Source: Patescibacteria group bacterium (GTDB taxonomy: Bacteria > Patescibacteriota > Dojkabacteria > J137). From it: a stretch of DNA of 64,000 nt. The notes below the pieces were generated by a model. It saw only the letters and a program-made list of their open reading frames with translations, was not told where the DNA came from and ran no database searches. Every line of letters starts with the position of its first letter. Positions within the stretch are counted from its first letter, which is position 1. Location of the stretch: the NCBI GenBank assembly GCA_963169855.1, contig CAUJCN010000002.1:5508-69507 (forward strand), written 5' to 3'. The translations under genes and the position numbers were made by a program. This document shows positions 955-52,947 of the stretch, piece after piece.

Positions 955-3900
955 TTAAATTAATACGCAAAGTCCAGCTTTTAGATCTTCTTCTACCTTT
1001 TTATATTTAACATCCTTTAATTCTCTACCGTCAGAATATCGAACGCTTACCTTATCATTTCTTCCAATTTCATCTACTCTGTTGTTTACAATCGTTCTGC
1101 CAGATTGAGATTCACCTGTAGAAATTGTAGCTTGTGTTTTATTCTTCTGCTTAATTGCATTCTCAATCACGTTATCTAATTTATTTGTCGTAGTTTCTGT
1201 TGGAATAAATTCTCTGTCCTCTGTTGAAACGTCTTTAATATCTTCGGTATTTGTATCAAGAATTTGTCGTCCTGTTTGAGGCACAGGTACTTCCGTAACT
1301 TTTGAAACATTCAAAATCTTTTTTACAAACTCAGCATTGATCTTTGCAATAAATGATCTGAAAACGTTAAATGCTTCGTTTTTGTATTCAACTAGTGGAT
1401 CTTTTTGTGCGTATGCTTGTAGCCCGATTCCGTCCCTTATATCTTTCATCAATTCTAAATGATCAACCCAAGCATTATCTGTATTCTGGAACATTATTAC
1501 TTTTGATAGATAATAGAAGTCGTCTCCGAATTCTTCAACCTTTTTATCAAAAGCTTGTTTCGCGATTTTTGCCAATTCAGCTGCGGTATCCTTATTATTT
1601 AATTCCTTTGTCTTGTCGTTAAATTGTCCAAAATTTACATACTCTGTGTATTGCACCGGAACCATTGTAAAGAATTCTCTCATTGCTTTTTCAAATGCCT
1701 GAGTTTTATCTTTCAACTCTCTAACTTCTTCGATTACTTCTGATGTTTCTCCGTTATATAAATCCTCAACAAGGGTTCTCAATTTCTTTTTACTATCTTC
1801 TATTCTTTCTAATAGTTCAGATTTTCTATTCGTATCCTCAACTTTATCCACTTCAACCAAATCTTGGTTAATTAAAAATCTTCCATTAGAACCCTCTGAT
1901 AAGTTAAGCATTTCTCTTCTTCTTGTATAGAAAATTTCTCTATGTTGATTCATTACATCATCGTAGTCTACAACTCTTTTTCTATAGTCGAAGTTTACGT
2001 TTTCAATTCTTTTCTGAGCTCCTTCGATTTGTCTTGAAATCAACTTCATTTCGATTGGCATATCATCTTTCAGCCCAACCATTCCTAGTAATCTTGACAT
2101 CATTTCTCCTCCAAGAATTCTTAAAAGATTGTCTTCCATAGATGTGTAGAATCTGGAACTTCCCGGTTCTCCCTGTCTTCCTGTTCTTCCTCTTAGCTGG
2201 TTATCAATTCTTCTTGCCTCGTGTCTTTCTGTACCAATAACGTGAAGTCCACCAACCGCAGCAATTTCTTTCCATGCATCGTCTCCTCTTTTTCCTCCTC
2301 CGATAATAATGTCTGCTCCTCTACCCGCCATGTTTGTTGCAACTGTTACTGCACCTTTTCGTCCAGCCTTCTCGATAATTTTTGCTTCTTGTTCGTGATA
2401 TTTTGCGTTTAATACTTCGTGTGCAATTCCCGCCTGGTCTAAAAGTTGCGATACAATTTCAGATTTATCAACAGACGCAGTACCGATAAGTACAGGTTGT
2501 CCAACAGCGTGTCTTTCTTTTACCTCCTCAATTACAGCTTTAAATTTTGCTTCTTGAGTTTTGTAAATTCTATCGGGGTGGTCAACTCTGATAATAGGTT
2601 TGTTGGTTGGCATTGTGACAGATTCGAGTCCATAAATTTTGTAGAACTCTTCTGCTTCTGTAAGAACTGTTCCAGAACCTCCGCAAAGAACTTTGTAAAG
2701 TCTAAAGAAATTTTGGAATGTAATAGTTGCAAATGTTTTGCTTTCCTGTTGTATCTGGACTCCTTCTTTTGCCTCGATTGCTTGATGCAAACCTTCGGAA
2801 TATCTTCTTCCTTTTAAAATTCTTCCTGTAAATTCATCGACGATTAAAACTTCACCGCTTTTTACTAAATAATGTTCGTCTCGGATGTAAAGAGTCTTTG
2901 CTTTAAGTGCGTTTTCGATGTGGTAAGCTGAAGAATAATCTTTCCAGATATTATCTACTCCCAAATTCGCTTCAACTTGAACAATCCCTTCTTCTGTTAA
3001 ATTTGCCGACCTGCTTTTATGATCTATAATGTAATGTTTTCCTTCTTCCAGATTTATTACTGCTTGAGCAAACTTCATGTATTTATCAGTATCTGCATCA
3101 CTTGGAACTCCAGAAATAATCAGCGGTGTTCTAGCTTCATCGATTAAGATTGAGTCAGCCTCGTCAACAATACAAAAATATAGTTCTCTTTGAGAAATTC
3201 CTGAGAGTTCCCATGCCATATTGTCTCTTAGATAGTCGAATCCAAATTCGTTGTTTGTTCCGTATGTAATATCACAGTTGTAACTTTCTCTTTTTGTACA
3301 TTCAAGAAGGTTTGCTGAGTCCAAACTGCTTAGATTTACTGTTGTACCCATTGCTTCTCTTTTTGTTTGAGCTTCATCACCTTTTAGAAGTTTAATTTGA
3401 TCATCAGCAATAAATTTATAAGAAATTTGTGAATTGATAATTCCAACAACTAATCCTAATTCAATTGCAATATGTCCAGCGTATTCACCGTCTCTTCTAG
3501 AAAGATAGTCATTAACAGTAACCAGATGTGCTCCTCTTCCAGCTAATGCGTAAAGAATCAAAGGGAGTTGGAATGTCATAGTTTTTCCTTCTCCTGTAAA
3601 CAATTCAGCTAATCGTTGGCCTTGAGCCAAAACTATCCCAGCTTTTAACTGAACATCATGATATCTAAATCCCATTTTTCTAAAGAATACTTCATCTACA
3701 TAAGCGTAGACTTCAGGCATTACTTCGTATAGTTTTTTCTGAATAGCCTTTTCGTTCTCAGGTAAACCTTTACCTCTTTCTACTTTAGATAATGAAAGTT
3801 TGTCGTCTGCTGGGATTGCATCAACAAGTAATTTTAATTCTGCTTTAATTTCTTTAATCCTTGTTCGAATTTGTTCATAAGACATGTCTGGAGTTTTTGT

Positions 3901-4066: not shown

Positions 4067-4717
4067 CTACAATCTGAAAAATCCAATTATTCGATAAATC
4101 GTTTCGAAAGGATATTCCATATGGTACATCTTCATATTCTCTGTCAGAGCAATCAATCGTGCTTGTTCAACATCGTCCAAAGTTAAAACATATGTAGCAA
4201 TTACTGAAGATTCAAAAAGAACTTTTTTAACAAGTTGAATATGTACGATTGAAACTGCTAATGAAATTATTTGTAACCCTAAAGTAAAGATTAGTAATGC
4301 TGTCTGTAACTCTCCGTTTGTCGTTAATCCTAAAATAAATGAAAAAATCGTTCCTAAAAATAGAAAGTTAAGAATCTGAGGAAGTTTAACGTATGCCTTG
4401 AAGTCTCTTCTTCCAATCTCGCTCTGGAAAATGAAATAATAAAGAGTAAATAAATCAGAGAATAGTAAATGTTTTCTACTAATTAATAATGTATTCTCGA
4501 AGTAGAACGCTGGTAGAGAAATTTCGTCTGTTGCTCTGATAGCGAGTGATACTTTAAATTCTTTCCAGTATCTTTCTACAAGTTCAGCCAACCTAGTTTG
4601 TTGTCCTATTGGAATAATAAATTTATGTTTGATTTCTCTTCGGGAAGCTCCAGCATATAGAGCCAGGATCAATTGAGAAACAAAAACTAGTATTATTATC
4701 ACCAATAGAATGGTCAT
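4067..4717 (-). CDS. Hypothetical polytopic membrane protein, stop/start-adjacent to clpC
   Basis: 216 aa with multiple hydrophobic segments and no recognisable motif. The ATG at 4715-4717 lies 1 nt downstream of the clpC stop. Confidence 0.5.
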   Translation of the reverse strand: MTILLVIIILVFVSQLILALYAGASRREIKHKFIIPIGQQTRLAELVERYWKEFKVSLAIRATDEISLPAFYFENTLLISRKHLLFSDLFTLYYFIFQSEIGRRDFKAYVKLPQILNFLFLGTIFSFILGLTTNGELQTALLIFTLGLQIISLAVSIVHIQLVKKVLFESSVIATYVLTLDDVEQARLIALTENMKMYHMEYPFETIYRIIGFFRL

Positions 4718-4718
4718 A

Positions 4719-7196
4719 CTATTTTTCTAAAGAAAATTTATTATTATCAAACTTCATTATGACAGAATCTCCTTTCTTTAACGACTCTTTTAAGATTTGT
4801 TCAGAAATAAAATTATCGATTTCTCTTTGAACTGTTCTTCTGACTTGTCTAGCACCAAATTGTGGACTGTAGCTGACTCTTCCAACTTCATCAATAACGC
4901 TTTGATCAAAAGATATCTTAATTCCTTGTTCACTTAAGAGTTTCTTTGTATTTTCTAATGCAAGAACAACAATCTTATCGATTTCCTGAGCTGTTAGCGC
5001 TTTAAATACTACTACATCATCAAGTCTATTTATGAATTCTGGTTTGAAGTATTTATTCAGTAAAAGCATAAGTTGACTTTTTAAATCCTCCCATTTTGGA
5101 ATTTGATCTTTTGGATTCTTCATTTTAATCAAACTCTTTTTTGGCTCTTCTGGTTTAAATGCATCCATAATCTTGCTGACTTCGTCTGCGCCAATTTTAG
5201 CCATAATTAGTTCGGCTCCAATGTTACTAGTTGCAATAATGATTGTATTTTTAAAATCGATTAGTCTACCTTTGCCATCTGTAATTCTTCCGTCATCCAT
5301 AACCTGAAGGAGAATGTTAAACACATCTGGATGAGCTTTTTCAATTTCATCTAATAAGATTACAGAATAAGGTTTTCTCCTAACTTTTTCTGTTAACTGA
5401 CCGCCTTCGTCATAACCAACATATCCTGGAGGAGCGCCGATTAATCTTGTAACAGAAAATTTTTCCATGTATTCGCTCATGTCGATTCTGATCATTGCAT
5501 CTTCATCCCCAAAAACCAACTCTGACAGTGCTTTTGCAAGCTCGGTTTTTCCAACTCCAGTTGGTCCTAAAAATAAGAAAGAAGCTATAGGTCTTTTTGG
5601 ATCTTTCAATCCAGTTCTTGCTCTCCGCACAGCTTGGGCAACTGTAGTTACTGCTTCATTTTGTCCTATGATTCTTTTATGTAGGTTTTCTTCTAGATGA
5701 AGTAAATTTTCCTTTTCTTCTCGATTTAAATCTGTAATAGGAACTCCAGTCATTCTAGAAATCACTTCGTTTATATCCTGTACAGTAACTTCAGGTGTAC
5801 CTGTTCCTCTTTCCATTAACCACTGAGATTCTATTGGCTTAAGTTCTTCCTTTATCTTTTCTACCTCAACTTTTAATTCAGCTGCTTCCTTTAATTCTCC
5901 TGATCTTGTTAAAGATTCTCTTTCTGTTTCTAATTTTTTGATTTTATTCTTTAAGTTTTGAACTTCTACGGGTTCTCCAGCAAATTTAAGTCTAACTCTG
6001 CTGCTTGCCTCGTCTAAAACATCTATAGCTTTATCAGGTAAAAATCTATTCTTGATATATCTGTTTGATAAATTCGCAGCCGCAGAAAGTGAATCATCGT
6101 TTATTTTCAATTTATGGTGAGCTTCGTATCTTGGCTTAACACCCTTAAGGATTTGCAAAGTTTCTTCTACTGTAGGTTCGTCTACCACAACAGGTTGAAA
6201 TCTTCGTTCTAGTGCAGCATCTTTTTCAATATATTTTTGATATTCCTGTAAAGTCGTTGCTCCAATAACTTGAAGTTCTCCTCTAGCTAAAGCTGGTTTT
6301 AACATGTTCGAGAAATCCAATTCTCCTTGTTGTGCTCCAGATCCAACAATTGTGTGAAGTTCATCTATGAATAAAATTACGCTTCTTTCTGCTTTTTCTA
6401 AATCTTGGATTAGTTTTTTTGCTCTTTCTTCGAATTCTCCTCTGAATTTTGAACCCGCTACAAGTGATGCTAAGTCTAAAGATTTAACTTTTTTATCTCT
6501 CAAAACTTCTGGAACTTGACCACTTATAATTCGTTGTGCGAGTCCTTCAGCAATTGCAGTTTTTCCAACTCCTGGTTCTCCAATCAAAACTGGGTTATTC
6601 TTTTTTCTCCTCGAAAGAATTTCAACAACCCTGGTTATCTCTTCATCTCTACCCACAACAGGATCGATTTTATCTAGTCTCGCCATTTCTGTAAGATCTT
6701 TTGTGAATTCATCCAAAGTTGGTGTTTCTGATTTACCATTTACTCCTGAACCTTCGATATCGCCTTCTCCAATGACTTTTATAACTGCTTGCCTTGCTTG
6801 AGAGTGGCTTATGGCGTATTTTCTCAAAACCTGTGCGGCTAAACCTTCCTGTTCTAAAATTAGACCTAGAAGAATATGTTCTGTTCCGATATACGTATGG
6901 TTTAATGCTAATGATTCTTGGTATGCTAATTGAACAACTTGAGAAGCTCTTGGCGAGAAGGTTGGATTTTGAGTAGGATAATTACCTTCTGGCATTAATC
7001 TTTCGAGCTGATTTGCTAGTTCCTCTCCATTGATTCCCAACTCCTTGAATATTTTAGTCATTACAACACTATCTTTCGTCAATCCCCACAACATCTGTTC
7101 AGTATCAACTGATCTTTGTTTCTTTTCGATAGCTTTTGAAATTGCGTTTTGAAGAGCTTCGTTTGTTCTATTTGAAAATAATTCTGAAATGTTCAT
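4719..7196 (-). CDS. clpC: Clp/Hsp100 AAA+ chaperone, ClpC-type (two AAA+ modules, Clp_N repeats)
   Basis: 825 aa with two Walker A motifs ([16 protein letters not shown]), N-terminal Clp repeat region and a sensor-2 C-terminal region. The length fits ClpC rather than ClpB. Confidence 0.88.
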
Positions 7197-7514
7197 ATTA
7201 AAATTGTACTAATTTTAAAAAACTAAATGTATATTTAATTTCTTGCCTTTCAAAATATATTTTAGCAGGTTACTCGCCAAACTGCCAATATTCGAAAAAT
7301 TCTAAATCATAAGTACTAAGTTAGAAGGATAATGGTCTACAGTTAAATCTAAAGTGCAGAGTCATACTGAGCATGTCGAAGTACAGACACGAAGATTAAA
7401 GAGCTAAGTTTCAAAATTCAAAACTAAAGATCAAATATATCTAACTAAAAGCCCATCGCCCACAGCTCATAGCTTTTTGTAATAACGTTGAAGTGATAGC
7501 AGTAATACTTTAGA

Positions 7515-10500
7515 ATGAGTAAGATTATGGACGAGTCTCCTAAACGTTATACGAGATCAATTTTAGCGCTTGTTGTTGTTATCGGATTGATATCAACTGT
7601 AGGCTTAATTCGAGATCTATCTAAACAAGGTATAAGACCCTTTGGGTTTATCGAAAATGTTCTGGCTCAAGTTACTCAAAGCAACGCACTATCCTCAGTT
7701 TTTGTTTCTCAAAATGAAGAACCAGTTTTAAGGAAAGTTTTTGATTCTACCGATAGATGTAGACCATCAGGGGTTAATCCTTTAATTCCTGGAAAAGGTG
7801 GTATTAATTTGGCTGCTTTAGACTCCAATACATGGAGGTCTGTAATTGACTACTCTCACGGTAAGAATGATGTTAACGAGCAGTTGAATATGGGTTATCA
7901 ACTAGGAATGTTTACAGATCCGAACGATAGTGGCTCAGCTGCAGAATTCATTATTGATACAAGTAAAGCAGGAATGATTCCTATAGTTAGACTTTGTTAT
8001 CCTGGAGGATGTAATTTCCAAATAGATGTTCCATTGTTAAGAAATCCAGATAACGTACAAGAAATGGCAGCAGCGGAATTTCAGAGCCAATTTGCTACAC
8101 ACGATATTGTAGATTTCTACAAAGCAATCATTAATGAACTTGATAGAAGAATTGGTGGTAACAAAGTTTATAACGAAGATATTTCTAATCTTCAGGGGTA
8201 TGAATTTGTTGCTCTCGTAGGTCCAAACGAACCTGGGACAGCTGGGGAAATGCAAGCATTTGGAATTGATAACTATGATACTTTGGTTAGATCTGTAAAT
8301 GAAGCTGGTTATTATCTGCAAAAATTGAGGGTTGCGAATGGCGGGATAATGTATCTTGCACCAGGTGCATTCAACTTATCTAATACACAAGGTGATGATT
8401 TGAAAGAATTCTTTGGACCAATTGAACGAAATAACGGTGGAGTGCAGACTACAACGCAAAATGGAACAGAGTTGAAAGTCGAGTACTTTGATTATGTATT
8501 AGGTAATGCCTATGATCAAGATTCTACTGACCCTAGTCATGAACCTACAACCGCTGCAACGTATGTTACAAACGGAAATGGAGGTTCTGGCATCAACTTA
8601 AACTATGTAAGTAGGAAATACGATCTTCCAATCATTCTGACTGAGTTTGGAACTTTCAATGGCAATATGGCAACTTTTAAATATTCATTTAAACAACTTT
8701 GTCTTAATGATAATGTAGAGGGAATTTTGTTTTTTAGAAATATTGCGGAGCTTCAAGAGCTATCACCTGAACCAAGACCACTACAAGTATCTACCGAGGT
8801 TATTAGAGATATGACTTTGGGCTGTTCACGAAAAATCACATTCCCAAACTGTAATTTTGACACGACACTTTACGCAACCACTCGTTCGTTAGCAGATACA
8901 GTCCCTGATTCTTTAGCAAAAGCCGAAAGCTTCTGTTCGGTTGTAGACGAAGACTACGAAACTAAAGCAGCAGTCACAGGAGGCTCAGGCTATAGAGTTG
9001 TTTGTGGAGATGCAGGAAATGGTAGAACACATTGTTCGGCAAATGCTCAAAATACTTTGCAAATAGGACTTCCAATAAATAGCTTTGGAAGTAATTCTGC
9101 GTTTGGAACAAGAACAAGACAATTCCCTTCCTACAATGTCGAAGCTTATGCTTCACAGAGCAATCAAGCAGTGGACAGTTTGAATCAATTTGCTGGAAAA
9201 ATTACAGTTGGTGGAATCACTTACCCAATGCCGTGGCTGGGATCTGCAATCCAAAACTCATCAGAGATAATCATGGATAATATACACCAAGGTGATGTGG
9301 TTGGAGAAACATTAGTTTCCCCTGGACTTGAAGTATATTCTTCGATTGCGGATATAGCAGGAGATTCTGGAAAAGGTTTAGCTAGATCAGTGCCTTACAG
9401 CACAAGTGGAATTTCTAAAGATGGGAAGATACCAGATGAAAGAACGGTTTTAGCAAACGACATTGTTTTTGACAAAGCATTATTGTCTGACCTTCAAGCA
9501 TTAAGACCATACAATCCTTCGACATTTAATTCAGCTTCTGAATTTCCTACCTATCCAATGAGTTGCAATTCAACAGGAAGATATGTAAGTAATGCAGATG
9601 ACTATATTTATGGTCCTGAGATTCAGCTTCAAAATAAAGCTGTTTGGGATGGTTCTGGGGGTCGAATGTGTGCACTGGTAGCAAACCGATATGGATCATC
9701 ATCACCGAGAGTAGAATCTTTGGATCCACTAAATTGTCAGGTATTAGAAGATCAGTTTTACATAAGTCCTTCGTTTGGAGCAATCTCTTGTAGAGCAGCT
9801 TTGCCAGCTTGTGCCCAGTCAGCCGATGGAATAAACGGAGGTTTCTGCTATATAGAACCTGATGTAGCCGATCAATGTTTGAATTTCGTGCCTCCTGATA
9901 CAGGATTCAGAGGTGTTAGAGTTTATGTTTATTCTAATACATTAGATGATATAGATGCTAAAGTCGAGATCCCTGGAATTTATGATTCTATATTCAGATT
10001 AAAAGATTTAATGAATCGTGAATTTAAAACTAACGATTTGAAGCTTGTTATGCAAGAAGGTTATGGATGGGAAGTTGAGGTAAAACTAACTACACGAGAT
10101 ACATCTGATATTGCAAACCAAGTAGTGCATCAATATGTAACAACAGATGCAGAGAAAGACGTTTCGAATTTTGAAGGTGAAAAAGTTAACATGTCTTCTC
10201 CAAACTACGTTGTTCGACAATTCATGCCTGCAAAAGAATTAAGCCAGAAAACAAATAAATCGTATATTAAAGATTTAGAATATCTAAATCAAATTAACGA
10301 AATTAGGTCGGTTTACTTGTCTGATCCTAACTCAAGTCATCCTAATAATTTAAGTGAGTATTTTAGTGGAGTAACTAATCCATTTTATGATCCATCTGAT
10401 ACTTCAAAACCAAATTTCAATAGACAAAATATTTTGATAAGCGACATGTCTTCTCAAGCAATGTCTTATCCATTATTGAGTTGTGATCAGGTCAATATCT

Positions 10501-12656
10501 GTAAGAAGTTCAGTCAGAGTGAATTGATTGCTCAAGGTTACGATCCTAGATTAGCAGCTAATTTATGCCCGCTTCCTGGAACATCAAAAATTAACCCTGC
10601 AGCAAAAGTGTCGTGTATTACAGATATTGTAGATAACAGAGTTGAAGATGTATTAGACACAGAATTATGCCGAAGGGGTTATCAAATCAGTGATAAATGT
10701 AAACTGCAGTGTATCGCTGCTCCTGTAGACTCTAGTCCAACAACTCCTCCAGCTTCCGAAGGAGAATCAACAATTAGAAGTTTAGCTGACGTGACACCTG
10801 GACTAGCTTCACTTACAAATAGGATCGAGACAACAATGCAGCTTCCAGAAGGAATGTTAATTGCATTAATGGAAAGAGAAATTACTTCTGCAGTTAAGAC
10901 AGTACAGGGTGAGCCTTTCGAACAACTATATAGAAGATCATCTAGTGGGCAATATGTTTGGGGTCCAGCACAGTTCCATCATATTTCGTGGTATGGTTCT
11001 GAATATGCGCCGTTCAACGATGAAGGAAGATTTGGAACAGGTTATGGAGAATTAGATGGACGAGGCTTTGGTGGAAATTCTCCTCCATACATTGCAGGAA
11101 CTCAACAATGTTTAGATGCATTAGCAATTAACTATACAGATGGTCAACATCTAGAAGAAGGTAAAGCTGATGTACTTGAACGTTCGTATTTAGGATTTGC
11201 TCTTTGTGCAGCAGCAGCTAAATTGAAGAATGATTCGAGAACATTTGATAAACAAGTTACAGAATGGACACAAGACGATGTATTTAATGCATCAAGAGCT
11301 TACCTTGGAGACTGTTCTCAGTTTGGCAGAAAGTATTGTGATATTTATGTAGAAACTATTTGTAATACTTACCCAGAAAAGAATCCTATTATCTGTGAAG
11401 GAGTTCCGATTAGACCAAGCCCAGGCGGCGAAATCTGCGTTCCAATTGAGGTCGATCCAACTGACGGCTGTAACTATGCAGATATTTCTTTGAAATATCC
11501 AATGCCAAGTGTTCAACTTGTGGTATCTCAGAAATACGGAAGTAACCTACATAGTGGGGTTGACTTAGCTGCAGCTATAAATACTCCTATCGTTGCAGCA
11601 GCAGATGGCGTTGTTACTTCTATAAATAACTCTGCTCAGCAACCGGCAAATGGTGCACCACAAGATCCAAGCTCTCCTGGATATTCACAAGGTGCTGGAA
11701 ACTTTGTAAAAATTAAACATCTGCAATTCCAGACTGATAACGAAATTTGGACAAGTTACCAACATATGTCACGAGTTGAATCAGGAATAGTTCCGGGGGT
11801 GCAAGTTAAAGCAGGTCAAGTAATTGGTTACGTTGGAACAACAGGAAGGACAACTGGTCCTCACCTTCACTTTGAGCTAAGACTAAACGATTGTTATGAC
11901 GGATATGGAGAAGGTGACAATCCATTGGGAACTTGCTCAGCAGATCCGCAGCTTTATATGTATCAGGGTGATAATCCACTCCAGTGTATTCCTGGAGCTG
12001 GAACAGATTCAGACATCATGACTGGATCATTTTCATGTCCTGTAACAAGCCCGACAAGAATATCTCAGAATTCTGATGGATGTAATGCATTTGGAACTTG
12101 CGGATTCTCACATTCAAAAGATAATATCTATAATCAGTATCAACAGAAGCCCACAGATATTACTGCTCCTGGACAGCAGGTTGTTGCCCCAACAGATGGA
12201 ACAATTATCGAGATTAGAGATCCCGTGGAAACTGTAAATGCCTATCAACCGATCGGATCTATCTGTGGATTCATCAAACTTCCAGATCAGTCAGAAAGTT
12301 ACTACGATGGTGGCTTTGTTATTCATATGCTAGATTCAACAGGAAGACTATGGAGATTTGTTCATGTTGAAGGTCTTAAAGTAAACGAAGGCGATAAAGT
12401 AACAAAAGGGCAACAACTAGCCGAAGTTTATGACGGCAAGCTTGGAGTTGAAACGAACTATTCAAAGAATACGAAGTATGGAGATAAGAACTGGGAACCA
12501 TGGAGTGTAAGAAGTGATAATGCAGATGGTTGTTTTAATGTTAATAACGCTCACTTGCACTTTGCTATTATTAGCAAGGATGCAATCTCAGCACCATATT
12601 TTGAAGGAAACGAAATTGATTCGACTCCTTGGGTTAAAAAATTCTGCAGCCTATGA
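7515..12656 (+). CDS. Giant (1713 aa) membrane-anchored, Cys-rich secreted multi-domain cell-wall hydrolase. It has a tentative clan GH-A glycosidase-like N-domain, a lysozyme/SLT-like segment, a canonical M23 peptidase domain and a second degenerate M23-like domain.
   Basis: N-terminal TM anchor (ILALVVVIGLISTVGLI). NEP (aa 238-240) and TEFG (aa 376-379) are spaced like GH-A acid/base and nucleophile motifs. ALMEREITS...SSSGQYVWGPAQF resembles the SLT E...S...GxxQ pattern. M23 HxxxD (LHSGVDLAA) and HxH (GPHLHFEL) motifs are present, and a C-terminal NAHLHFAI marks the second M23-like module. Confidence 0.8.
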   Translation: MSKIMDESPKRYTRSILALVVVIGLISTVGLIRDLSKQGIRPFGFIENVLAQVTQSNALSSVFVSQNEEPVLRKVFDSTDRCRPSGVNPLIPGKGGINLAALDSNTWRSVIDYSHGKNDVNEQLNMGYQLGMFTDPNDSGSAAEFIIDTSKAGMIPIVRLCYPGGCNFQIDVPLLRNPDNVQEMAAAEFQSQFATHDIVDFYKAIINELDRRIGGNKVYNEDISNLQGYEFVALVGPNEPGTAGEMQAFGIDNYDTLVRSVNEAGYYLQKLRVANGGIMYLAPGAFNLSNTQGDDLKEFFGPIERNNGGVQTTTQNGTELKVEYFDYVLGNAYDQDSTDPSHEPTTAATYVTNGNGGSGINLNYVSRKYDLPIILTEFGTFNGNMATFKYSFKQLCLNDNVEGILFFRNIAELQELSPEPRPLQVSTEVIRDMTLGCSRKITFPNCNFDTTLYATTRSLADTVPDSLAKAESFCSVVDEDYETKAAVTGGSGYRVVCGDAGNGRTHCSANAQNTLQIGLPINSFGSNSAFGTRTRQFPSYNVEAYASQSNQAVDSLNQFAGKITVGGITYPMPWLGSAIQNSSEIIMDNIHQGDVVGETLVSPGLEVYSSIADIAGDSGKGLARSVPYSTSGISKDGKIPDERTVLANDIVFDKALLSDLQALRPYNPSTFNSASEFPTYPMSCNSTGRYVSNADDYIYGPEIQLQNKAVWDGSGGRMCALVANRYGSSSPRVESLDPLNCQVLEDQFYISPSFGAISCRAALPACAQSADGINGGFCYIEPDVADQCLNFVPPDTGFRGVRVYVYSNTLDDIDAKVEIPGIYDSIFRLKDLMNREFKTNDLKLVMQEGYGWEVEVKLTTRDTSDIANQVVHQYVTTDAEKDVSNFEGEKVNMSSPNYVVRQFMPAKELSQKTNKSYIKDLEYLNQINEIRSVYLSDPNSSHPNNLSEYFSGVTNPFYDPSDTSKPNFNRQNILISDMSSQAMSYPLLSCDQVNICKKFSQSELIAQGYDPRLAANLCPLPGTSKINPAAKVSCITDIVDNRVEDVLDTELCRRGYQISDKCKLQCIAAPVDSSPTTPPASEGESTIRSLADVTPGLASLTNRIETTMQLPEGMLIALMEREITSAVKTVQGEPFEQLYRRSSSGQYVWGPAQFHHISWYGSEYAPFNDEGRFGTGYGELDGRGFGGNSPPYIAGTQQCLDALAINYTDGQHLEEGKADVLERSYLGFALCAAAAKLKNDSRTFDKQVTEWTQDDVFNASRAYLGDCSQFGRKYCDIYVETICNTYPEKNPIICEGVPIRPSPGGEICVPIEVDPTDGCNYADISLKYPMPSVQLVVSQKYGSNLHSGVDLAAAINTPIVAAADGVVTSINNSAQQPANGAPQDPSSPGYSQGAGNFVKIKHLQFQTDNEIWTSYQHMSRVESGIVPGVQVKAGQVIGYVGTTGRTTGPHLHFELRLNDCYDGYGEGDNPLGTCSADPQLYMYQGDNPLQCIPGAGTDSDIMTGSFSCPVTSPTRISQNSDGCNAFGTCGFSHSKDNIYNQYQQKPTDITAPGQQVVAPTDGTIIEIRDPVETVNAYQPIGSICGFIKLPDQSESYYDGGFVIHMLDSTGRLWRFVHVEGLKVNEGDKVTKGQQLAEVYDGKLGVETNYSKNTKYGDKNWEPWSVRSDNADGCFNVNNAHLHFAIISKDAISAPYFEGNEIDSTPWVKKFCSL

Positions 12657-13378
12657 ACACAAATTTAAACAAACAAGACAAGATTAATTACAAAGAATCT
12701 GAGGAGAAAGAAAAGAAGTGGTATCAAAGAATTACACTGCCTATGTTTGTTATGGCAACTATTACCGCAATAATAGTAATGCTTGCACTTGCAATTGTTT
12801 ACTCTGGTGTGAACAGTCTAAGACCAACACAAATCGCAGAAGGGATAGAAGAAATTAGACTTGAGTCTGCAAATGGTCAGATAGTAATGCAGTATAAACT
12901 TTACGATAATAACGGTCGTAAAGTGTTACTAATTGTCGCAAATAATATAAGTGATACAATTTCTTTAAGAAATTTAGTCAATGGAATTGTGTATTCAAAA
13001 GGCTTGACTTTAAATGATGTAGATATCGTTTTAAAAGATTTAGATGAAGATTCATCCTTATCACCGGAAGCTTATTTTGCTCAAATTGAGAATGAAGTTG
13101 ATCCTTTAAACCCATTATTTCAAAGCGATAATAATGAATTCTATCAGGGAGAAGAAACGATTGATCCAATAGATTTTAGATTATACATTCTAGCAACGAG
13201 GTACGAAGACTCTAGATTTAGAGTTGTTCAGCTTGATGAAAATACATTTAGGATTGAGCTGAAAGAAGATTTTACTGAGGAGCGCTTTAGAAATGAGTTC
13301 TTAAAAAACTTTCTAAATACTGATGGAATAACATTTATCTTTGTTGATCAGAACTCAATCAGGGAAGAAACTCCGTAA
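12653..13378 (+). CDS. Hypothetical membrane-anchored protein translationally coupled (ATGA overlap) to the giant hydrolase
   Basis: 241 aa with one TM segment (ITLPMFVMATITAIIVMLALAIVYSG) followed by an acidic soluble domain. The start overlaps the upstream stop. Confidence 0.6.
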   Translation: MNTNLNKQDKINYKESEEKEKKWYQRITLPMFVMATITAIIVMLALAIVYSGVNSLRPTQIAEGIEEIRLESANGQIVMQYKLYDNNGRKVLLIVANNISDTISLRNLVNGIVYSKGLTLNDVDIVLKDLDEDSSLSPEAYFAQIENEVDPLNPLFQSDNNEFYQGEETIDPIDFRLYILATRYEDSRFRVVQLDENTFRIELKEDFTEERFRNEFLKNFLNTDGITFIFVDQNSIREETP

Positions 13379-13962
13379 TCACTTTTTAGAAATATATGGA
13401 TTTCCTTTAATGCAAAATCTTAACTCCATTTCTTTGGATTTTGATATGCCAACTCTTGTTGAAGAAATCACTTCTTTTTCTAAATTCTCTGGAAGTTCAG
13501 CAATAAACACTTCGGAATCAGAACTTGTAAGATCTATTCCATCTTGAAGTTTGGTTATATCCATAGCCTTGCATAGCTTGCCTGGTCCAGTTGTGAGATC
13601 TTTGAGATTAGTTTTATCTCTGTGTTTCTGCATTATTTCTATTCCAGTTAAAGGTTGCAGTGCACGAATTAAAACGCTTCCACCTACTCCCTTTCCTTGG
13701 CAAACTGCATCAATACAATGTTGGCTATGAATTGTATGAACATATGAGTGTCCCCCTTCTAGAAAAAGTGATTATTGCTTTTAGTTTTTCCTCTAAATGC
13801 ATGTGCAGCATGATCATCCATTGCAAGATAAGCTTCTGTTTCAACTATGATTCCGCTGATAATCTGATTATTGAACTTTCGGACTAAAACTTTACCTAAA
13901 AGGTCTTTTGCAACAGTCTCTGGGTTGCGTTTATAAAATTCTCTAAGAAGAATATTATCCAT
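13379..13962 (-). pseudogene. 3-methyladenine DNA glycosylase (Mpg/AAG family) interrupted by a single-base frameshift in an A5 homopolymer (plus strand 13763-13767)
   Basis: N-terminal ORF 13759-13962 ([28 protein letters not shown]) and C-terminal frame 13379-13758 ([51 protein letters not shown]...). Inserting one T restores [12 protein letters not shown], matching the Mpg ETEAY...HA.RG..RN..MFG..G..YVY.YG.H motifs. Confidence 0.65.
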
Positions 13963-16634: not shown

Positions 16635-16752
16635 TAAAATCATGTAAAAGCCAGAAGTTTAAAGCTAAATGGCACGATATTTTCAAGTATCTCGAAGAAT
16701 GAAATTTGTATTTTAATCTTTGAATCTTTATATTTTTAATTTTTTAGTAATT

Positions 16753-17463
16753 ATGGCAAATCTACCAATAACTCCATCTTCATACATGCCTAACTTGTTA
16801 CACATTGTTCCACCATACACTGGCGAAGAACGAACTGTAGTTAATGCGATTGTGGAAGTAAACTCAAACTCAATTAACAAATACGAAATAATTACAGAAA
16901 CAGGTCATCTTAAATTAGATAGAGTTGGATATTCAAGTCTAGCGTATCCTTTTACTTACGGTGCAATTCCTAGAACCTGGGATTTGGACGGAGATCCTTT
17001 AGATGTGGTTATTGTAAATGTAGCAGAGCCTTTGATCCCTGGATCACTTGTTGAAGCAAGAATTATTGGAGTTATGAAATTCGTTGATGGAGGAGAAGTT
17101 GATGATAAAGTTATTGCAGTTTTAAACGATGATAAAAGAGTCGATCATATCAAAACTATTGCTGACTTAGGCGAATACTGGGTAAAGGAAGCAACCTACT
17201 ACTGGGAACATTACAAAGATTTAAAGAAACCAGGCACTGGGAAAGTGGAAGGATTCTTCGATTTAGAAGTAGCTCAACAGGTTATTAACGAATGTGCAGA
17301 TAGATATGTAGAAGATTTTCTACCAAAGCTAGATGCTGATAGCTCATGCGCTTGTGGCTGTGAAGGATGCGAAGATTGCGATTGCGAAAATTGCCAGGAA
17401 GATCAAGAAGGACATTGTCATTGCGACTGTGAAGCTTGTGCATCTCAACATGTAGCTCACTAA
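16753..17463 (+). CDS. ppa: Family I inorganic pyrophosphatase with an unusual Cys/His-rich C-terminal tail
   Basis: Motifs NAIVEVNSNSINKYE and DGDPLDVVI. The tail is CACGCEGCEDCDCENCQEDQEGHCHCDCEACASQHVAH. The ORF-table start (16720) is TTG; the ATG at 16753 (MANLPITP) is likelier. Confidence 0.8.
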   Translation: MANLPITPSSYMPNLLHIVPPYTGEERTVVNAIVEVNSNSINKYEIITETGHLKLDRVGYSSLAYPFTYGAIPRTWDLDGDPLDVVIVNVAEPLIPGSLVEARIIGVMKFVDGGEVDDKVIAVLNDDKRVDHIKTIADLGEYWVKEATYYWEHYKDLKKPGTGKVEGFFDLEVAQQVINECADRYVEDFLPKLDADSSCACGCEGCEDCDCENCQEDQEGHCHCDCEACASQHVAH

Positions 17464-25578: not shown

Positions 25579-25579
25579 A

Positions 25580-25985
25580 ATATGTTCATTCTCATAAGCC
25601 GGATTCTGTTTTAAGGACAATTTCTCTATGCCCCGCCAATGGCAGGTTGCTTTATGCAGGGGTTACCAGCGACTTAATATTACTATTTAGTCCGGTGGTC
25701 TCTTACGCCACCATTTCACCATCACCCAACTACGCCAAAGGCTTAGTCGGGCAGTATCTTTCTGTTGCCCTTTTCTCCCTGAGATCACTCCCAGCCTATA
25801 TTCTGATACAAGTGTTCGTCGTATCAGCTTAAAGGTGCATATCTCGTTAACTTGCAGGCTTTTAAAAGTTTCTGTTTGTCGTACGAGACCAAATTAAAGT
25901 CCGGACTTTCCTCCCGACTACGCTAAAGCTTCGTCGGGTAAACCCAACTAGCCTCGCAAATCGAGTAGTCCAACGGAATGAATCG
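25580..25985 (-). ncRNA. rnpB: RNase P RNA, bacterial type A
   Basis: On the minus strand: P4 5' half GGAAAGTCCGGACT (revcomp of about 25897-25910), GGTGAAATGGTGGCGTAAGAGACCACC (cf. GGUGAAAcGGUGcGGUAAGAGcgCACC) and ACAGAATCCGGCTTATGAG (P4 3' half). A P3 hairpin cccgacgaagctttagcgtagtcggg is present. P1 strands GAUUCAUUC/GAAUGAAC define the ends. Confidence 0.85.
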
Positions 25986-46300: not shown

Positions 46301-47719
46301 ATGACAGAAAGTTTTCTGAAAGTGTTACCACTTGCTTCTTATTTGATTGTGTTACTTACTCCTTTAATTATTTTGGCTATAGATGCCAGGGCTTTTACTT
46401 TCATTTTCTTTCTTTATGTTCTATACGGAATAATAAAATCTGCTAGTTTACTTTTAGGAACGATTGTTGGTTATTATCGCTTCAAATACGAAAGTCGAAT
46501 TAATTGGAAACAGAAACTTCTTAGTACAAATGAATCACTACCAAATCAACTTATAGCAATTCCTGTATACAAGGAAGATTTTTCGATCATAGCGAGATGT
46601 TTGGATTCAATAGTTACTCAAAATTACGATACTGAAAAACTCTTTGTATCTATTTCTATTGAAGAGAATCTAAAGTTTAATCATTTGAAGGAACAGATTT
46701 TGTGTAAGTACGAATCGATATTTAAGAATCGTATACTTGTTGTCCAACACATCCTACAACCAGACGAAGTTAAAGGAGCTGCATCAAATAGAACTTATGC
46801 TGTAAAAGAATTTTTAAGACAAACAGGACTTAAAGTTGAAGATTTTCTAGTAACATCTCCTGATGCTGATACTGTTTTTAACCAACAATACTTCTCTCGA
46901 ATTGCATACCAGTGGATTATCGATGGCTACTCTTATAACGTTTTTTATCAAACTGGAGCTTATAAATTTGACAACAACTTAAGAAAAGTACCTTTGATGG
47001 TTAGAATAGTTTCGATAGGAATTAGCCTTGGAACTTTATCCTCTGCTGTGACAGAAAATAAATACCGTTATACTTTCTCGTGTTTTACAATCCCATTGAG
47101 AACACTTATTGATATTAATTTTTGGGATATTTCGATTTCTATTGATGATACACCTCTTTACTGGAGAGCTTTTGATTATTTTAAAGGAAACTTTGAATGC
47201 AGGACTTTTTATATTCCAATCTCCGTAGATGCTATAGACTCGAAGAATTACTTCGATGCTCACGTTAAGCAATACAGGCAAATTCATCGGTGGGGTTGGG
47301 GTGTCATTGTATTTCCAAGTGCAATAAGAGCTTTGCTGAAAAGCGAAACTAATTTTACAAGAAAGTTAATCTCAACTTTATATTTCTTTGACATTTCAGT
47401 GTTCCTAAAGGCAATGCCAGCAAGTATTATTTTCTATCTACTTTTGATAAACACTTCAAATTTTTTAAGCACAATATCTTACATCAGCTTTGTGTTTCTA
47501 GTCGTAGGAAGTCCATGGGTGTTCAAATTCTCCCTAGAAAATAGTAAGATGTCTTTACTAACGGCATTGACAACAATTTTGTTTTTTTTACCAATGGGTT
47601 TAGTAAATATTTATCTTTATTGCTTAATTCCATTCTTTCATGCTGCAATTGAATTTGCATTTGGAATGAATGTAGTCAATAGAATTAATTGGTCGATAAA
47701 ATTACCAGAAGATGCGTAA
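46301..47719 (+). CDS. Family 2 membrane glycosyltransferase (processive-type, QxxRW motif)
   Basis: AIPVYKED...LDSIVTQNY (GT2 N-terminal pattern), DxD-like SPDADT, QIHRWGWG (Q-x-x-RW), and TM helices at both ends. Confidence 0.62.
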   Translation: MTESFLKVLPLASYLIVLLTPLIILAIDARAFTFIFFLYVLYGIIKSASLLLGTIVGYYRFKYESRINWKQKLLSTNESLPNQLIAIPVYKEDFSIIARCLDSIVTQNYDTEKLFVSISIEENLKFNHLKEQILCKYESIFKNRILVVQHILQPDEVKGAASNRTYAVKEFLRQTGLKVEDFLVTSPDADTVFNQQYFSRIAYQWIIDGYSYNVFYQTGAYKFDNNLRKVPLMVRIVSIGISLGTLSSAVTENKYRYTFSCFTIPLRTLIDINFWDISISIDDTPLYWRAFDYFKGNFECRTFYIPISVDAIDSKNYFDAHVKQYRQIHRWGWGVIVFPSAIRALLKSETNFTRKLISTLYFFDISVFLKAMPASIIFYLLLINTSNFLSTISYISFVFLVVGSPWVFKFSLENSKMSLLTALTTILFFLPMGLVNIYLYCLIPFFHAAIEFAFGMNVVNRINWSIKLPEDA

Positions 47720-50678: not shown

Positions 50679-52947
50679 CGAACCCCCAAAACAAAACGAG
50701 GTTGCGGAAGTCACACTAACTTCTAGAGGAAGAGGAAAAAAAGTTGCTCATACAACATTTTATCCACTATTCTACTTTTTTTCTAATATAGAAAAAGGAA
50801 TCCAGAAAACTGTCTCTGCAGTATTACATTTCCCTAGAAAGCTTTTTTCATTGATTGATAAAAGAACTCTTAAAATTGTATTAGGAATCATTGCAATAGA
50901 GATTGTAATTGGCTACCTTATAGCCTGGTTATATTTAGATATTACAGCTCCCCAGGATATTACTTATTACTTAAGCAAAGTTGATTTTGATGTTTACGCT
51001 GTATTGATGATTGCTATCTTTGGTATTTTCTTGATAGGAAATCTTTTCCAAATTACAATTGGATTTTATGAATCAAGATTCAGTAAAAAAAGATTTGCAT
51101 TATTCAATGTAATTCTAGTTGTAGCATTTGTAGTATTGTTCCTGGGAGCTTACGTTTTCAGACATCCTGAAATGCAAAATAGCTATCCTAAATATGCACA
51201 AGCAATGGAGGATTACACAAAGCCGATTGAAGTTTTATTCAATCTACCAGTCGATGTCTCCGCTTTGAAACCAACAATTACACCAGAATTAAAAGGAGTG
51301 TGGGAATGGGAACCATACTTGGGAAATAATGCTATGACTAGAAGAGGTAAATTTCATGCAGAGATTTCTGCATTCCCTGACCAACGTTTTGTAATCTACA
51401 TTCCAGGAATTAAGAAATTTACAGATCCAACTGTGCATGAATATGGATTCGCATTTAAGGCACCGCCTTTACCAGCAATCGTATCTACATATCCTGAGCA
51501 GGGATCTGTTACAGCAAAAAGAGACGATCAGGTTGTATTTAGAATTGATAGGGACAGTAGAGATCTTGTAGATTGGAGCTTTAGACTTCTCCCATCTACA
51601 GAATTTGATGTAGTCTTCGAAGAATCGGACATTATAATCAAACCTAAGGCATTGTTGGAACAAGGAAAATCTTATACTCTAACAGCAGCCTATAGGCCAA
51701 AGCAAATTAATCTACTAACCAAAGAATCTGTGTCTTTTGGCGAATCTATTAATAAAATTGATTTAAAATTCACGACTATAAAAGAACCATTAATTGACAC
51801 TTTCAAACCAACTGGCAACACTGTAATAATCTCTGAGCAGATAAAAATTAAGTTTACAGAAGAAATGAACAGAGAAAGTGTTGAAGAAAAAATGAAAATA
51901 GAGCCAGCAATCGAGGGCGAAATTGTTTGGACAGACGATAAAAATTTAACTTATGTAAACGAAGAGCCTTTGCCAAAAGATACTGCTTACAAAGTTACTT
52001 TTGCTTCTGGAATGATGAGTAAAATGGATGGAGTTTCTAACAAAGAAATTACTTATGATTTTAAAACAATCGGTAAAGTAAGAATTTCTGATTATTCTCC
52101 AGGTAATGGAGCTACATATGTAAGTGAATACACTGATATTAGAATTGCTTTCGATCAGGAAGTGAACAAGGATGAAGCTCAATCGCATCTAGTTGTCTCA
52201 CCTGCTTACCAAGCTGTATTTAGGTGGGAAGGAAATACAATGATTCTTGCAGCTCTTCAACCTATGGCATTTAATACTACATATTCGGTAAGGTTGACTG
52301 CTGGTGTTCAATCGATCAACGGATTGCCGAGTACGGACGAAATCAATTTCAGTTTTACTACAAGATCAAATGTCTACGTTTTTACAATGCCAATCTACTA
52401 TCAACCAGCAGGTAGTTTCTCTTGTAATATCTACACTGCAAAAATGGTGTTAGCTTACAAAGGTCATTCAGCTGATGCAACTGGATTAATTGCAGAAATT
52501 GGTTATGACGAAGGCAGGTCAGGAAATTCATGGACAGGAAATCCATATGCAGAATATGTTGGAAACGCTGACGGAAGCTGGGGTTACGGTGTTTACTATC
52601 CACCTATTCAGAATATTTTCGCTGCAAGAGGGATATCTTCTGATCCTAAGGTTGGATGGAATGTTTCAGATTTGGCACGAGAAGTTCAACAAGGAAGACC
52701 TGTAGTTATTTGGAGATACAACGGAGTTAGTAGCGGTGCAAACATTTCTTGGACATCTGATGACGGAACTTATGTACCAGCATTTAGTGGGATGCACGGT
52801 GGAGTTGTAACTGGATTCACGGGTCCTGTAGAAAATCCTACGAGTTTCTACTTAAATGACCCTTGGTTTGGTCCATTCTGGTTAGACGTTGGTACTTTTG
52901 ATTATTACTGGTCGTTCTCTAATAGAATGGCTCTAATCGTTTACTAG
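50668..52947 (+). CDS. Large membrane-anchored surface protein with repeated Ig-like segments and a C-terminal C39-like cysteine peptidase-like domain (tentative)
   Basis: TM segments near the N-terminus. The C-terminal QPAGSFSCNIYTAKMVLAYKG follows the Q-x5-C-x6-M-x-L-x-Y-x-G pattern of peptidase_C39-like proteins, with downstream His (GMHGG) and Asp/Asn (NDPW). Confidence 0.5.
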   Translation: METNEPPKQNEVAEVTLTSRGRGKKVAHTTFYPLFYFFSNIEKGIQKTVSAVLHFPRKLFSLIDKRTLKIVLGIIAIEIVIGYLIAWLYLDITAPQDITYYLSKVDFDVYAVLMIAIFGIFLIGNLFQITIGFYESRFSKKRFALFNVILVVAFVVLFLGAYVFRHPEMQNSYPKYAQAMEDYTKPIEVLFNLPVDVSALKPTITPELKGVWEWEPYLGNNAMTRRGKFHAEISAFPDQRFVIYIPGIKKFTDPTVHEYGFAFKAPPLPAIVSTYPEQGSVTAKRDDQVVFRIDRDSRDLVDWSFRLLPSTEFDVVFEESDIIIKPKALLEQGKSYTLTAAYRPKQINLLTKESVSFGESINKIDLKFTTIKEPLIDTFKPTGNTVIISEQIKIKFTEEMNRESVEEKMKIEPAIEGEIVWTDDKNLTYVNEEPLPKDTAYKVTFASGMMSKMDGVSNKEITYDFKTIGKVRISDYSPGNGATYVSEYTDIRIAFDQEVNKDEAQSHLVVSPAYQAVFRWEGNTMILAALQPMAFNTTYSVRLTAGVQSINGLPSTDEINFSFTTRSNVYVFTMPIYYQPAGSFSCNIYTAKMVLAYKGHSADATGLIAEIGYDEGRSGNSWTGNPYAEYVGNADGSWGYGVYYPPIQNIFAARGISSDPKVGWNVSDLAREVQQGRPVVIWRYNGVSSGANISWTSDDGTYVPAFSGMHGGVVTGFTGPVENPTSFYLNDPWFGPFWLDVGTFDYYWSFSNRMALIVY

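Follow-up and report, generated by a model that had tools for sequence, protein, structure and literature searches.

The tail-tip enzyme gp13 of phage phi29 (PDB 3csq, listed as 'Morphogenesis protein 1') opens the cell wall from outside and is built from a lysozyme-like glycan-cleaving domain, a linker and a C-terminal M23/LytM endopeptidase. A LytM-like domain is also carried by PrgK. PrgK (pCF10), TraG (pIP501) and CwlT (ICEBs1) are membrane-anchored enzymes that combine SLT/muramidase and peptidase domains (PMC12102498). For the CPR predator Vampirococcus, giant membrane proteins and peptidoglycan hydrolases have been described, with breakdown of the host wall as their proposed role (PMC8080830). 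A similar action on the walls of other cells has been proposed for giant proteins of Omnitrophota and Vampirococcus, some of which have SLT-like domains (bioRxiv 10.1101/2023.11.21.568195; PMC8080830). An obligately symbiotic or parasitic life has been inferred for WS6/Dojkabacteria (PMC5113843). By what physical means CPR/Patescibacteria engage other cells and exploit them is still to be settled. To our knowledge, no member of the Dojkabacteria has been cultured and no host has been identified for them. The protein family described here is a concrete, testable candidate for host-interaction or envelope-remodelling machinery, since it is restricted to one class, occurs once per scanned genome at one syntenic position, evolves fast and exchanges wall-active modules.

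The 64,000-nucleotide stretch of Dojkabacteria DNA analysed (the window) contains a 1713-aa ORF (7515..12656, + strand, stop codon included) that is longer than any other in the window, as first reported from the sequence; SecA, at 1016 aa, comes second. Its product, the giant protein, is identical to P0001 encoded on an 817,811-bp contig, and its gene makes up about 0.6% of the ~0.8-Mb genome. ORF coordinates confirm the predicted 318-bp divergent intergenic region (7197..7514) between the giant gene (+) and clpC (−), the latter being a ClpC-type AAA+ gene (4719..7196, −) with 83% identity to a neighbour that carries Clp_N and AAA Pfam domains. Sigma-70-like matches in 7197..7514 are weak (4 vs 1.9 ± 1.1 in shuffles), no terminator was seen there and no clear Shine-Dalgarno sequence precedes the ATG at 7515; nothing in the promoter and terminator scans clearly exceeds shuffle expectation. 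The same window also encodes an OatA-like acyltransferase (47712-50678).

Hydropathy identifies only one hydrophobic segment in the giant protein, at residues ~13–33 (7551..7613, +), where alone the Kyte-Doolittle value of a 19-residue window exceeds 1.6, which bears out the single N-terminal TM anchor of the original prediction. The basic stretch KRYTR lies just before this signal-anchor/TM helix, and from the positive-inside rule we infer an N-in, C-out topology, in which some 1,680 residues would lie beyond the cytoplasmic membrane, tethered by the anchor. A conserved juxtamembrane motif, RPFGFIENVLAQ (residues 41–52; 7635..7670, +), follows the family consensus GxxPFGFIxxxxAQ, in which A51 is nearly invariant. 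The many cysteines noted earlier amount to 40 residues (2.34%), compared with 0.74% in the other ORFs of the window (binomial P about 6e-10); given this enrichment, the even number of cysteines and the conservation of those in the core, the protein is probably extracytoplasmic.

The first module, D1 (residues ~93–441; 7791..8837, +), had been suggested to resemble clan GH-A glycosidases on the strength of its NEP...TEFG spacing. This suggestion is upheld by the predicted structure, a (beta/alpha)8 TIM barrel as clan GH-A requires, and by the motifs GPNEP (N238-E239; 8226-8231, +) and TEFG (E377; 8643-8645, +), which are separated by 138 residues and unchanged in 23 of 23 homologs. In the model, N238-E239 is found just after strand 172–179 and E377 within strand 314–321 (D1 numbering), so that the putative acid/base (Asn-Glu, strand 4) and the putative nucleophile (Glu, strand 7) would be placed on the same fold as in the clan GH-A enzymes (GH26, GH53, GH5, GH128 and others). 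Structure-based identity between D1 and every solved GH-A enzyme is 8–16%. D1 has no match to Pfam, NCBIfam or PDB profiles, a 19-sequence D1 profile finds nothing in the PDB, and sequence similarity assigns the domain to none of the existing GH-A families (GH5, GH26, GH53, GH128 and others); a sub-threshold match to Glyco_hydro_cc (PF11790), which corresponds to GH128, was obtained for one stand-alone D1 relative. With no family-level sequence match and such low identity, D1 would need a GH family of its own, and we predict that it is a retaining glycosidase whose barrel represents a new version of the clan GH-A type. The substrates known for clan GH-A are beta-glucans, mannans, galactans and xylans; peptidoglycan is not among them. 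The barrel is present twice in three relatives (P0014, P0015 and P0019), and no further D1 paralogs were found within the window.

The barrel is followed by D2, a large, conserved and confidently modelled Cys-rich module of 620 residues (~445–1067; 8847..10715, +) without detectable relatives outside the family. Sequence searches returned no relative, no structural relative is present in the PDB and viral structure libraries, and no enzymatic signature was recognised by any tool applied. The N-terminal 1,330 residues of the giant protein, searched whole and segmented, likewise gave no match in Pfam, NCBIfam, PHROGs or PDB sequences.

D3 (residues ~1087–1330; 10773..11504, +) is divergent and lysozyme/lytic-transglycosylase-like, a term that here covers both a transglycosylase and a hydrolase. 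Its model, resting in this part on 5 sequences only, has a lysozyme-like fold in which a helix ends in a Glu and a beta-hairpin and GLMQ-type motif come next, in agreement with the lysozyme/SLT-like segment proposed earlier. The family-1 lytic transglycosylases and goose-type lysozyme (GH23; Slt70, MltE, MltC, SltB1) have in common with D3 the lysozyme-like helical fold, the catalytic Glu at a helix end with Ser/Thr next to it in most copies, and counterparts of the GLMQ and AYNxG motifs, which read GPxQF (here GPAQF) and AYLG/RYYG in D3. D3 differs from these enzymes in an insertion of ~60 residues, modelled with low confidence, in its conserved disulfide pair and in being missed by PF01464: neither D3 nor 12 homologous copies match any Pfam family, PF01464 included, and a PDB profile search was also empty. 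Comparison by hhalign with the E. coli SLT domains of Slt70, EmtA, MltD, MltC and MltF places the ES and GLMQ motifs in register within an overall match that is too weak to count by itself (probability 5.6%, P 0.0069). The D3-like domain is internal in the giant protein of the window and C-terminal in 8 relatives, and all copies, whether internal or C-terminal, keep its Glu (putative catalytic E1122; 10878-10880, +). No match to D3 was found among phages by tblastn.

The canonical M23 metallo-endopeptidase expected at D4 (residues 1336–1470; 11520..11924, +) is confirmed by Pfam (PF01551, residues 1345–1458, 104.5 bits vs a cut-off of 28.7, E 3.5e-30) and keeps the M23 zinc/catalytic set, H1346-SGV-D1350 (HxxxD), SYQH and H1450-L-H1452 (HxH). 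Its PDB matches are zoocin A, TagE, ShyA, LytM and lysostaphin, and it has domain-level NCBIfam matches to ShyC, ShyA and MepM, every score being far under the equivalog cut-offs. D4 thus aligns, with HxxxD and HxH kept, both with bacteriolytic enzymes that have dedicated immunity (zoocin A, lysostaphin) and with housekeeping enzymes (MepM, ShyA), all of which, unlike the giant protein, have one catalytic domain in 150–500 aa; sequence similarity does not say which of these groups D4 functionally resembles. The second, degenerate module, D5 (residues ~1530–1713; 12102..12653, +), is also recognised by PF01551 when scanned alone (33.7 bits vs 28.7, residues 1546–1639). Its M23 zinc-ligand set is incomplete, with Q1544-KPT-D1548 in place of HxxxD, while FVHVE and H1680-L-H1682 are retained; the HxxxD His is Q or E in three orthologs too, and the Asp, FVHVE and HLH are conserved in P0002, P0003 and P0033. 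D5 is best described as M23-like, its activity being uncertain. Sequence-profile searches recover the two peptidase modules of the original prediction (D4 and D5, PF01551) and give no sequence-profile match for its two glycan-directed modules, D1 and D3.

It is conceivable that the modules are dead, or bind only carbohydrate or peptidoglycan in the manner of the degenerate LytM factors EnvC and NlpD, and that the protein is an adhesin or scaffold for attachment to a host surface or for organising its own envelope. The loss of the first zinc-ligand His in D5 and the lack of a recognised enzymatic signature in D2, the largest conserved part, are consistent with such a role, and giant membrane proteins of CPR bacteria are usually read as attachment factors (PMC8080830). 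However, D4 retains all M23 catalytic and zinc residues, the catalytic Asn-Glu and Glu of D1 are those invariant in all 23 homologs, and the Glu of D3 is equally invariant in both kinds of copy. Conservation of these residues despite 25–35% overall identity argues for active enzymes, and we consider an adhesin improbable.

A homolog search among 1.84 billion representatives returned 218 matches, 77 of them with E <= 1e-30. The TM segment, D1 and D2 are common to about 80–90 giant proteins; the named family members are all Dojkabacteria, and the gene occupies one locus per genome in the 15 species scanned. BLAST conservation spans residues ~20–1085 in all homologs and the C-termini differ: a constant chassis takes up the first ~1,050 residues and the C-terminal modules are a shuffled payload. 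Precomputed Pfam annotation of the first 36 homologs gives M23, NAGPA, VanY, SGNH/GDSL and M15_4, and the domains in 26 further giants (M23 in 15, GDSL_2 in 9, VanY in 4, NAGPA in 4, M15_4 in 3, GH25 in 1 and Amidase_2 in 1) are, as judged from their sequences, all wall-active. The gene order secA, a ~216-aa gene, clpC, giant, partner and ychF recurs in three other genomes. In the complete Dojkabacteria genome AP024679 the giant gene appears to be split. In one genome pair, ClpC is 76% and YchF 71% identical, compared with 32% for the core of the giant protein and an undetectable partner. We reject a prophage or plasmid origin: tblastn finds the core in none of 50,697 phage and 72,556 plasmid records, and the chromosomal synteny is conserved.

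The partner is the 241-aa membrane-anchored protein (12653..13378, +) whose reading frame was said to overlap the stop codon of the giant gene; the coupling ATGA is read directly in the sequence. It has a basic/acidic N-terminal tail, one strong TM segment (about residues 29–49, nt 12737-12799, +; hydropathy maximum 2.76 at residue 31) and a ~190-residue domain without Cys that is predicted to be external. No match was accepted in Pfam, NCBIfam, PHROG or PDB, the best sub-threshold scores being E 0.009–0.05 in NCBIfam, a single E 0.009 in PHROGs and E 0.14 in the PDB, and only 4 close homologs were found. A comparable small TM ORF nevertheless begins −16 to +8 nt from the stop of the giant gene in 8 of 10 distinct loci, and these downstream genes split into at least 2 unrelated sequence groups. 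The position of the partner is conserved and its sequence diverges quickly.

The module architecture supports the earlier reading of the giant protein as a combined glycan- and peptide-cleaving wall hydrolase for attack or autolysis. We propose that it is a Dojkabacteria-specific envelope-degrading enzyme, membrane-tethered, extracellular and disulfide-stabilised, in which the chassis of D1 barrel and D2 is followed by a Pro/Ser/Thr linker and a three-module payload. D3, through E1122, would be expected to cut the MurNAc-GlcNAc glycan strand and D4, as a zinc M23 endopeptidase, the peptide cross-links, while D5 may act as another peptidase or else bind the substrate or activate cleavage. The modules would jointly attack any peptidoglycan-type wall that the tether lets them reach; cutting glycan and peptide bonds side by side would open the sacculus locally, and the D1 barrel may remove or cut a beta-linked glycan that accompanies the wall, for instance a capsule or secondary wall polymer. 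The partner, made alongside through its ATGA start, would most likely bind the giant protein at the membrane and so restrain it, position it or protect against its activity. The target would be a host or prey wall at the contact zone of a presumably episymbiotic CPR cell, for breach or anchoring. An envelope-degrading enzyme aimed at the wall of a host or prey, in preference to the cell's own, is a reading to which we give an even chance; it is favoured because syntenic orthologs freely swap payload modules and because evolution of the giant protein and of its partner is much more rapid than that of the housekeeping genes next to them.

The same architecture could belong to a housekeeping autolysin, a tethered and consolidated remodeller of the cell's own peptidoglycan that enlarges and splits its sacculus in growth and division. 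Its M23 and SLT-like activities would be joined in relatives by carboxypeptidase, amidase and O-acetyl esterase, and the partner would be a membrane regulator resembling FtsX-EnvC or another such activator/inhibitor pair. The N-terminal membrane anchor, the one copy per scanned genome in a conserved place among secA, clpC and ychF, and a payload set (M23, VanY/M15, SLT-like, SGNH, amidase, GH25) of standard self-wall remodelling activities are all compatible with this role. A ~0.8-Mb genome might consolidate such activities in one gene, peptidoglycan synthesis is often encoded in CPR genomes (PMC13293708), and the OatA-like acyltransferase suggests that the cell modifies its own wall. However, module swaps and duplication in syntenic orthologs, together with an identity so far below that of ClpC, are unusual for an essential housekeeping enzyme; the NAGPA and GH-A modules suggest glycans other than peptidoglycan; the ectodomain far exceeds the reach needed for the cell's own wall; and the lack of sequence conservation in the partner is odd for a dedicated regulator. 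No single one of these counter-arguments is decisive, and we regard an autolysin as a serious possibility, though one that we are inclined to doubt.

Returning to the host or prey wall as the target, a stronger version would make the giant protein the principal host-wall breacher of the Dojkabacteria, its chassis (a new GH-A family and a new-fold D2 that recognises or spans the envelope) presenting interchangeable, host-matched payloads and its partner serving as a self-protection or gating subunit; we offer this version tentatively and think it rather unlikely to hold in full. Should the kind of payload follow the wall chemistry of the host, this family could be of use in predicting hosts for uncultured Dojkabacteria. 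The family also provides three leads: a GH-A barrel that current sequence families miss, a divergent lysozyme-like family, and a large, conserved, confidently modelled module without a relative among solved or viral structures.

Among known systems, PrgK, TraG and CwlT are similar to the giant protein in being anchored and in joining glycan- and peptide-directed domains. A VirB1-like hydrolase of a T4SS or conjugation apparatus, making a local wall hole for channel assembly, might be suspected, as PrgK-type enzymes are likewise membrane-anchored and have LytM/M23-like and SLT modules, and VirB1 homologues with extra Peptidase_M23 or LysM domains have been reported in CPR bacteria (PMC12102498). 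However, genes of the VirB4, VirD4 or VirB6 type are absent from the surrounding 6 kb in four genomes and from the scanned ORFs of the 64-kb window. The three enzymes reside in T4SS operons, have CHAP/NlpC-P60 domains and measure less than ~900 aa, whereas the giant protein has no CHAP/NlpC-P60 domain; neither they nor VirB1 proteins possess a D1 barrel and D2 chassis, and the core of the giant protein is unmatched in the plasmid and phage collections. We reject this reading on gene context, the neighbours in four genomes being secA, clpC, ychF and housekeeping genes, and regard it as very improbable.

Phi29 gp13 has the same order of lysozyme-like and M23 domains as D3 and D4, and 3csq is among the weak M23 matches in the PDB (E 0.22). 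It differs in being a soluble virion part of ~365 aa without an anchor, GH-A barrel, D2 or second M23 module, and the core of the giant protein has no phage homolog. Polymorphic toxins and effector-immunity pairs have variable C-terminal modules and a co-varying gene directly downstream; the points of comparison here are a varying payload and a downstream small TM gene in at least two unrelated sequence groups. An N-terminal trafficking domain of the kind found in such toxins (LXG, WXG, Rhs, PAAR or similar) is absent from the Pfam results, which contain M23 only. The giants of Omnitrophota and Vampirococcus, like the protein described here, are membrane-associated and of very great size, and the bacteria that make them are ultra-small or predatory. 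They have no sequence relationship to it, are in many cases much larger and consist mostly of binding repeats, whereas the Dojkabacteria protein is dominated by enzyme modules, carried on a lineage-specific chassis.

At 1713 aa, the giant ORF (7515..12656 (+)) exceeds every other ORF in the window, SecA coming next at 1016 aa. A 241-aa ORF at 12653..13378, the putative partner, overlaps the giant's stop codon as ATGA (...AGC CTA TGA over ATG AAC), and upstream of the giant a 318-bp intergenic region (7197..7514) separates it from a divergent ClpC-type gene; the ORF, the overlap and the intergenic region had all been proposed in the original prediction and are seen directly. A protein identical to the giant is also encoded on an 817,811-bp contig, and GC content is ∼0.33–0.39 along the window. 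The gene order (secA, a ∼216-aa gene, clpC, giant, small gene, ychF) matches that of three other genomes. The ∼216-aa gene in the secA–clpC gap (window 4067-4717 (-); 2683-3333 and 1166-1813 in the homologous loci L001 and L002 of two other Dojkabacteria genomes, respectively) has no Pfam match and is conserved and syntenic. No type IV secretion genes were found among the scanned neighbours in the window, and it is very unlikely that the giant is a VirB1-like hydrolase of such a system.

Hydropathy analysis yields one segment hydrophobic enough for a membrane helix (residues ∼13–33), consistent with the single N-terminal anchor proposed previously. It is preceded by KRYTR which, by the positive-inside rule, predicts a cytoplasmic N-terminus with ∼1,680 residues outside. 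The abundance of cysteine noted from the sequence is borne out, with 40 residues (2.34%) in the giant; the remaining 46 window ORFs contain 0.74% (binomial P ∼6e-10). Nearly all of the 23 cysteines within residues 1–1,070 are kept by 17 or more of the 23 homologs. Both the content and the conservation fit a disulfide-bonded extracytoplasmic protein. About 8 residues past the TM helix lies the motif RPFGFIENVLAQ (window 7635-7670, residues 41–52; family consensus GxxPFGFIxxxxAQ), kept in almost every family member. Its V-L-A|Q resembles a signal-peptidase site, yet is unusually distant from the hydrophobic core, and the motif could serve in processing or docking.

No sequence method recognized residues 60–450. 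The AlphaFold2 model of this region (D1, residues ∼93–441), built from a 19-sequence alignment, is confident (pLDDT 80.9, pTM 0.83) and contains eight alternating strand–helix units, with N238-E239 ending strand 4 and E377 within strand 7. G236-P237-N238-E239, E377, R159, N331 and Y333 are invariant in a 23-homolog alignment. Fold and catalytic signature thus support the tentative clan GH-A assignment, with D1 modelled as a GH-A-like glycosidase barrel that would need its own family, since no existing family profile matches it. Three giants (P0014, P0015 and P0019) carry D1 as a tandem pair. The barrel also occurs in ∼130 smaller proteins (P0093–P0163 among them), either by itself or beside NAGPA or fn3-like domains; two of them have a named source, Dojkabacteria in both cases. 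One of the smaller proteins shows a sub-threshold match to Glyco_hydro_cc (PF11790). This duplication, together with the stand-alone copies, suggests that an undescribed glycosidase family has expanded within the lineage.

The predicted lysozyme/SLT-like segment (D3, residues ∼1087–1330) gave no match in single-sequence or profile searches; an iterated HMM within the family revealed eight relatives that end in the same domain. In the 13-sequence alignment a Glu (E1122 in the giant, usually with Ser or Thr as the next residue), G-P-x-Q-F and two Cys are invariant, and an AYLG/RYYG motif is also present, a set that mirrors the ES, GLMQ and AYNxG motifs of family-1 lytic transglycosylases. Alignment by hhalign to the Pfam-delimited SLT domains of Escherichia coli Slt70, EmtA, MltD, MltC and MltF places the first two motifs in register as a weak match (probability 5.6%, P 0.0069). 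In the AlphaFold2 model a helix ends at E1122 and leads into a hairpin, after which comes GPAQF; the domain also has an insertion below pLDDT 50 where only five sequences back the alignment. On motifs and model, we accept a lysozyme/lytic transglycosylase-like fold with moderate confidence. D4 (residues 1336–1470) is the textbook M23 domain anticipated, with a Pfam score of 104.5 bits, H1346xxxD1350, SYQH and H1450-L-H1452, and zoocin A, TagE, ShyA, LytM and lysostaphin as PDB relatives. Scanned in isolation, the second M23-like module, D5 (residues ∼1530–1713), clears the Pfam threshold (33.7 versus 28.7 bits). Its Asp, mid-domain His and HxH (H1680-L-H1682) are retained, but Gln stands in for the first zinc-ligand His, which is replaced in its orthologs too. 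It is divergent rather than clearly dead.

In every homolog, BLAST conservation falls on residues ∼20–1085 and the C-terminal third varies. Of 1.84 billion cluster representatives searched with a core profile, 218 matched (77 at E <= 1e-30), including roughly 80–90 giants of 1,300–2,450 aa. The recognizable C-terminal modules of relatives (M23, VanY, M15_4, NAGPA, SGNH/GDSL, GH25 and Amidase_2) are all predicted to be wall-active. Every named relative belongs to Candidatus Dojkabacteria, the CPR/Patescibacteria class once called WS6. When one genome per GTDB species was scanned, 15 species were positive with one locus per genome, all of them Dojkabacteria or bulk-labelled MAGs with contigs in common with them. 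The family core had no match in phage or plasmid collections, and a literature search found no publication describing the family.

A partner-like ORF of 131–272 aa, starting -16 to +8 nt from the giant's stop and carrying a strong N-terminal TM segment, is present in 8 of the 10 distinct loci with enough downstream sequence (window counted). The partners fall into at least two sequence groups unconnected by BLAST: the window's partner shares 46% identity with its L001 counterpart, and the L002, L003, L016 and L022 partners show mutual similarity of ∼27–32%. The window partner contains zero Cys and had no significant match in any library searched. Position, topology and coupling are conserved and sequence is not, which is compatible with a putative immunity, gating or positioning subunit. 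In the complete Dojkabacteria genome AP024679.1 (locus L015, 2884-8497) the giant is split into a 993-aa ORF (TM, D1 and the Cys-rich module D2) and a 586-aa ORF ∼410 bp apart; a 153-aa partner follows the second part, its start overlapping the stop. Similarity by tblastn continues beyond the first stop; a genuine split, a pseudogene and an assembly error are all candidate explanations. Between the window's partner gene and ychF, the region 13379-13954 (-) is probably a decayed or frameshifted methylpurine-DNA glycosylase (MPG) gene: the 84-aa ORF 13379..13633 (-) covers only the C-terminal half (PF02245 positions 105–181 of 181, E 4.9e-18), and upstream the frame stays MPG-like for ∼40 codons before several stops. 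In L001 and L002, ychF directly follows the partner.

Elsewhere in the window, an inorganic pyrophosphatase homolog (16720-17463 (+), 247 aa, N-terminal extension of ∼40 residues) has the top Cys fraction (12 Cys, 4.9%), and a class A bacterial RNase P RNA (25579-25949 (-)) is called divergent because it only just reaches the Rfam gathering score (100.2 versus 100 bits). The pair at 47712-52947 (+) comprises a 988-aa protein with an N-terminal Acyl_transf_3 domain, OatA-like in appearance and possibly a wall O-acetyltransferase, and a 759-aa protein carrying Big_5, Big_10 and Peptidase_C39_2 domains, the two overlapping where the first ends and the second begins. Since lytic transglycosylases are blocked by O-acetylation of MurNAc, the pair may be relevant to how the cell protects itself from the giant.

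Taken together, there is good support for a membrane-tethered extracellular enzyme whose lineage-specific chassis bears a glycosidase barrel, a lysozyme-like domain and either one or two M23 peptidases. Action on another cell's wall is the reading we favour, at about even odds. This reading draws on the swapping and duplication of payloads between syntenic orthologs, the fast divergence of giant and partner (giant core only 32% identical between the window and L002, versus 76% for ClpC and 71% for YchF), the NAGPA and GH-A modules, which point to non-peptidoglycan wall polymers, and the very long ectodomain. It is further supported by the symbiotic or parasitic lifestyle inferred for WS6/Dojkabacteria (PMC5113843) and by the precedents of CPR predators (PMC8080830). 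Alternatively, the giant may be a housekeeping autolysin, a possibility we rate somewhat lower, as indicated by its membrane tether, its single copy at a conserved position amid housekeeping genes and a payload repertoire matching the activities normally used for self-remodelling; the genome does make peptidoglycan (PMC13293708). A mainly adhesive role is considered unlikely.

Multi-catalytic wall hydrolases that join a lysozyme-like domain to a peptidase are well known, including phi29 gp13, PrgK/TraG/CwlT and the staphylococcal autolysins, and the giant has the same pairing. What is new is a constant TM–barrel–D2 chassis confined to a single CPR class. The GH-A barrel and the lysozyme-like domain, also new, match no current sequence family, and the 620-residue D2 (residues ∼445–1067) has no structural relative in the PDB or viral libraries. 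A further novelty is that payloads are exchanged at a single syntenic position, next to a coupled membrane partner that itself evolves fast.
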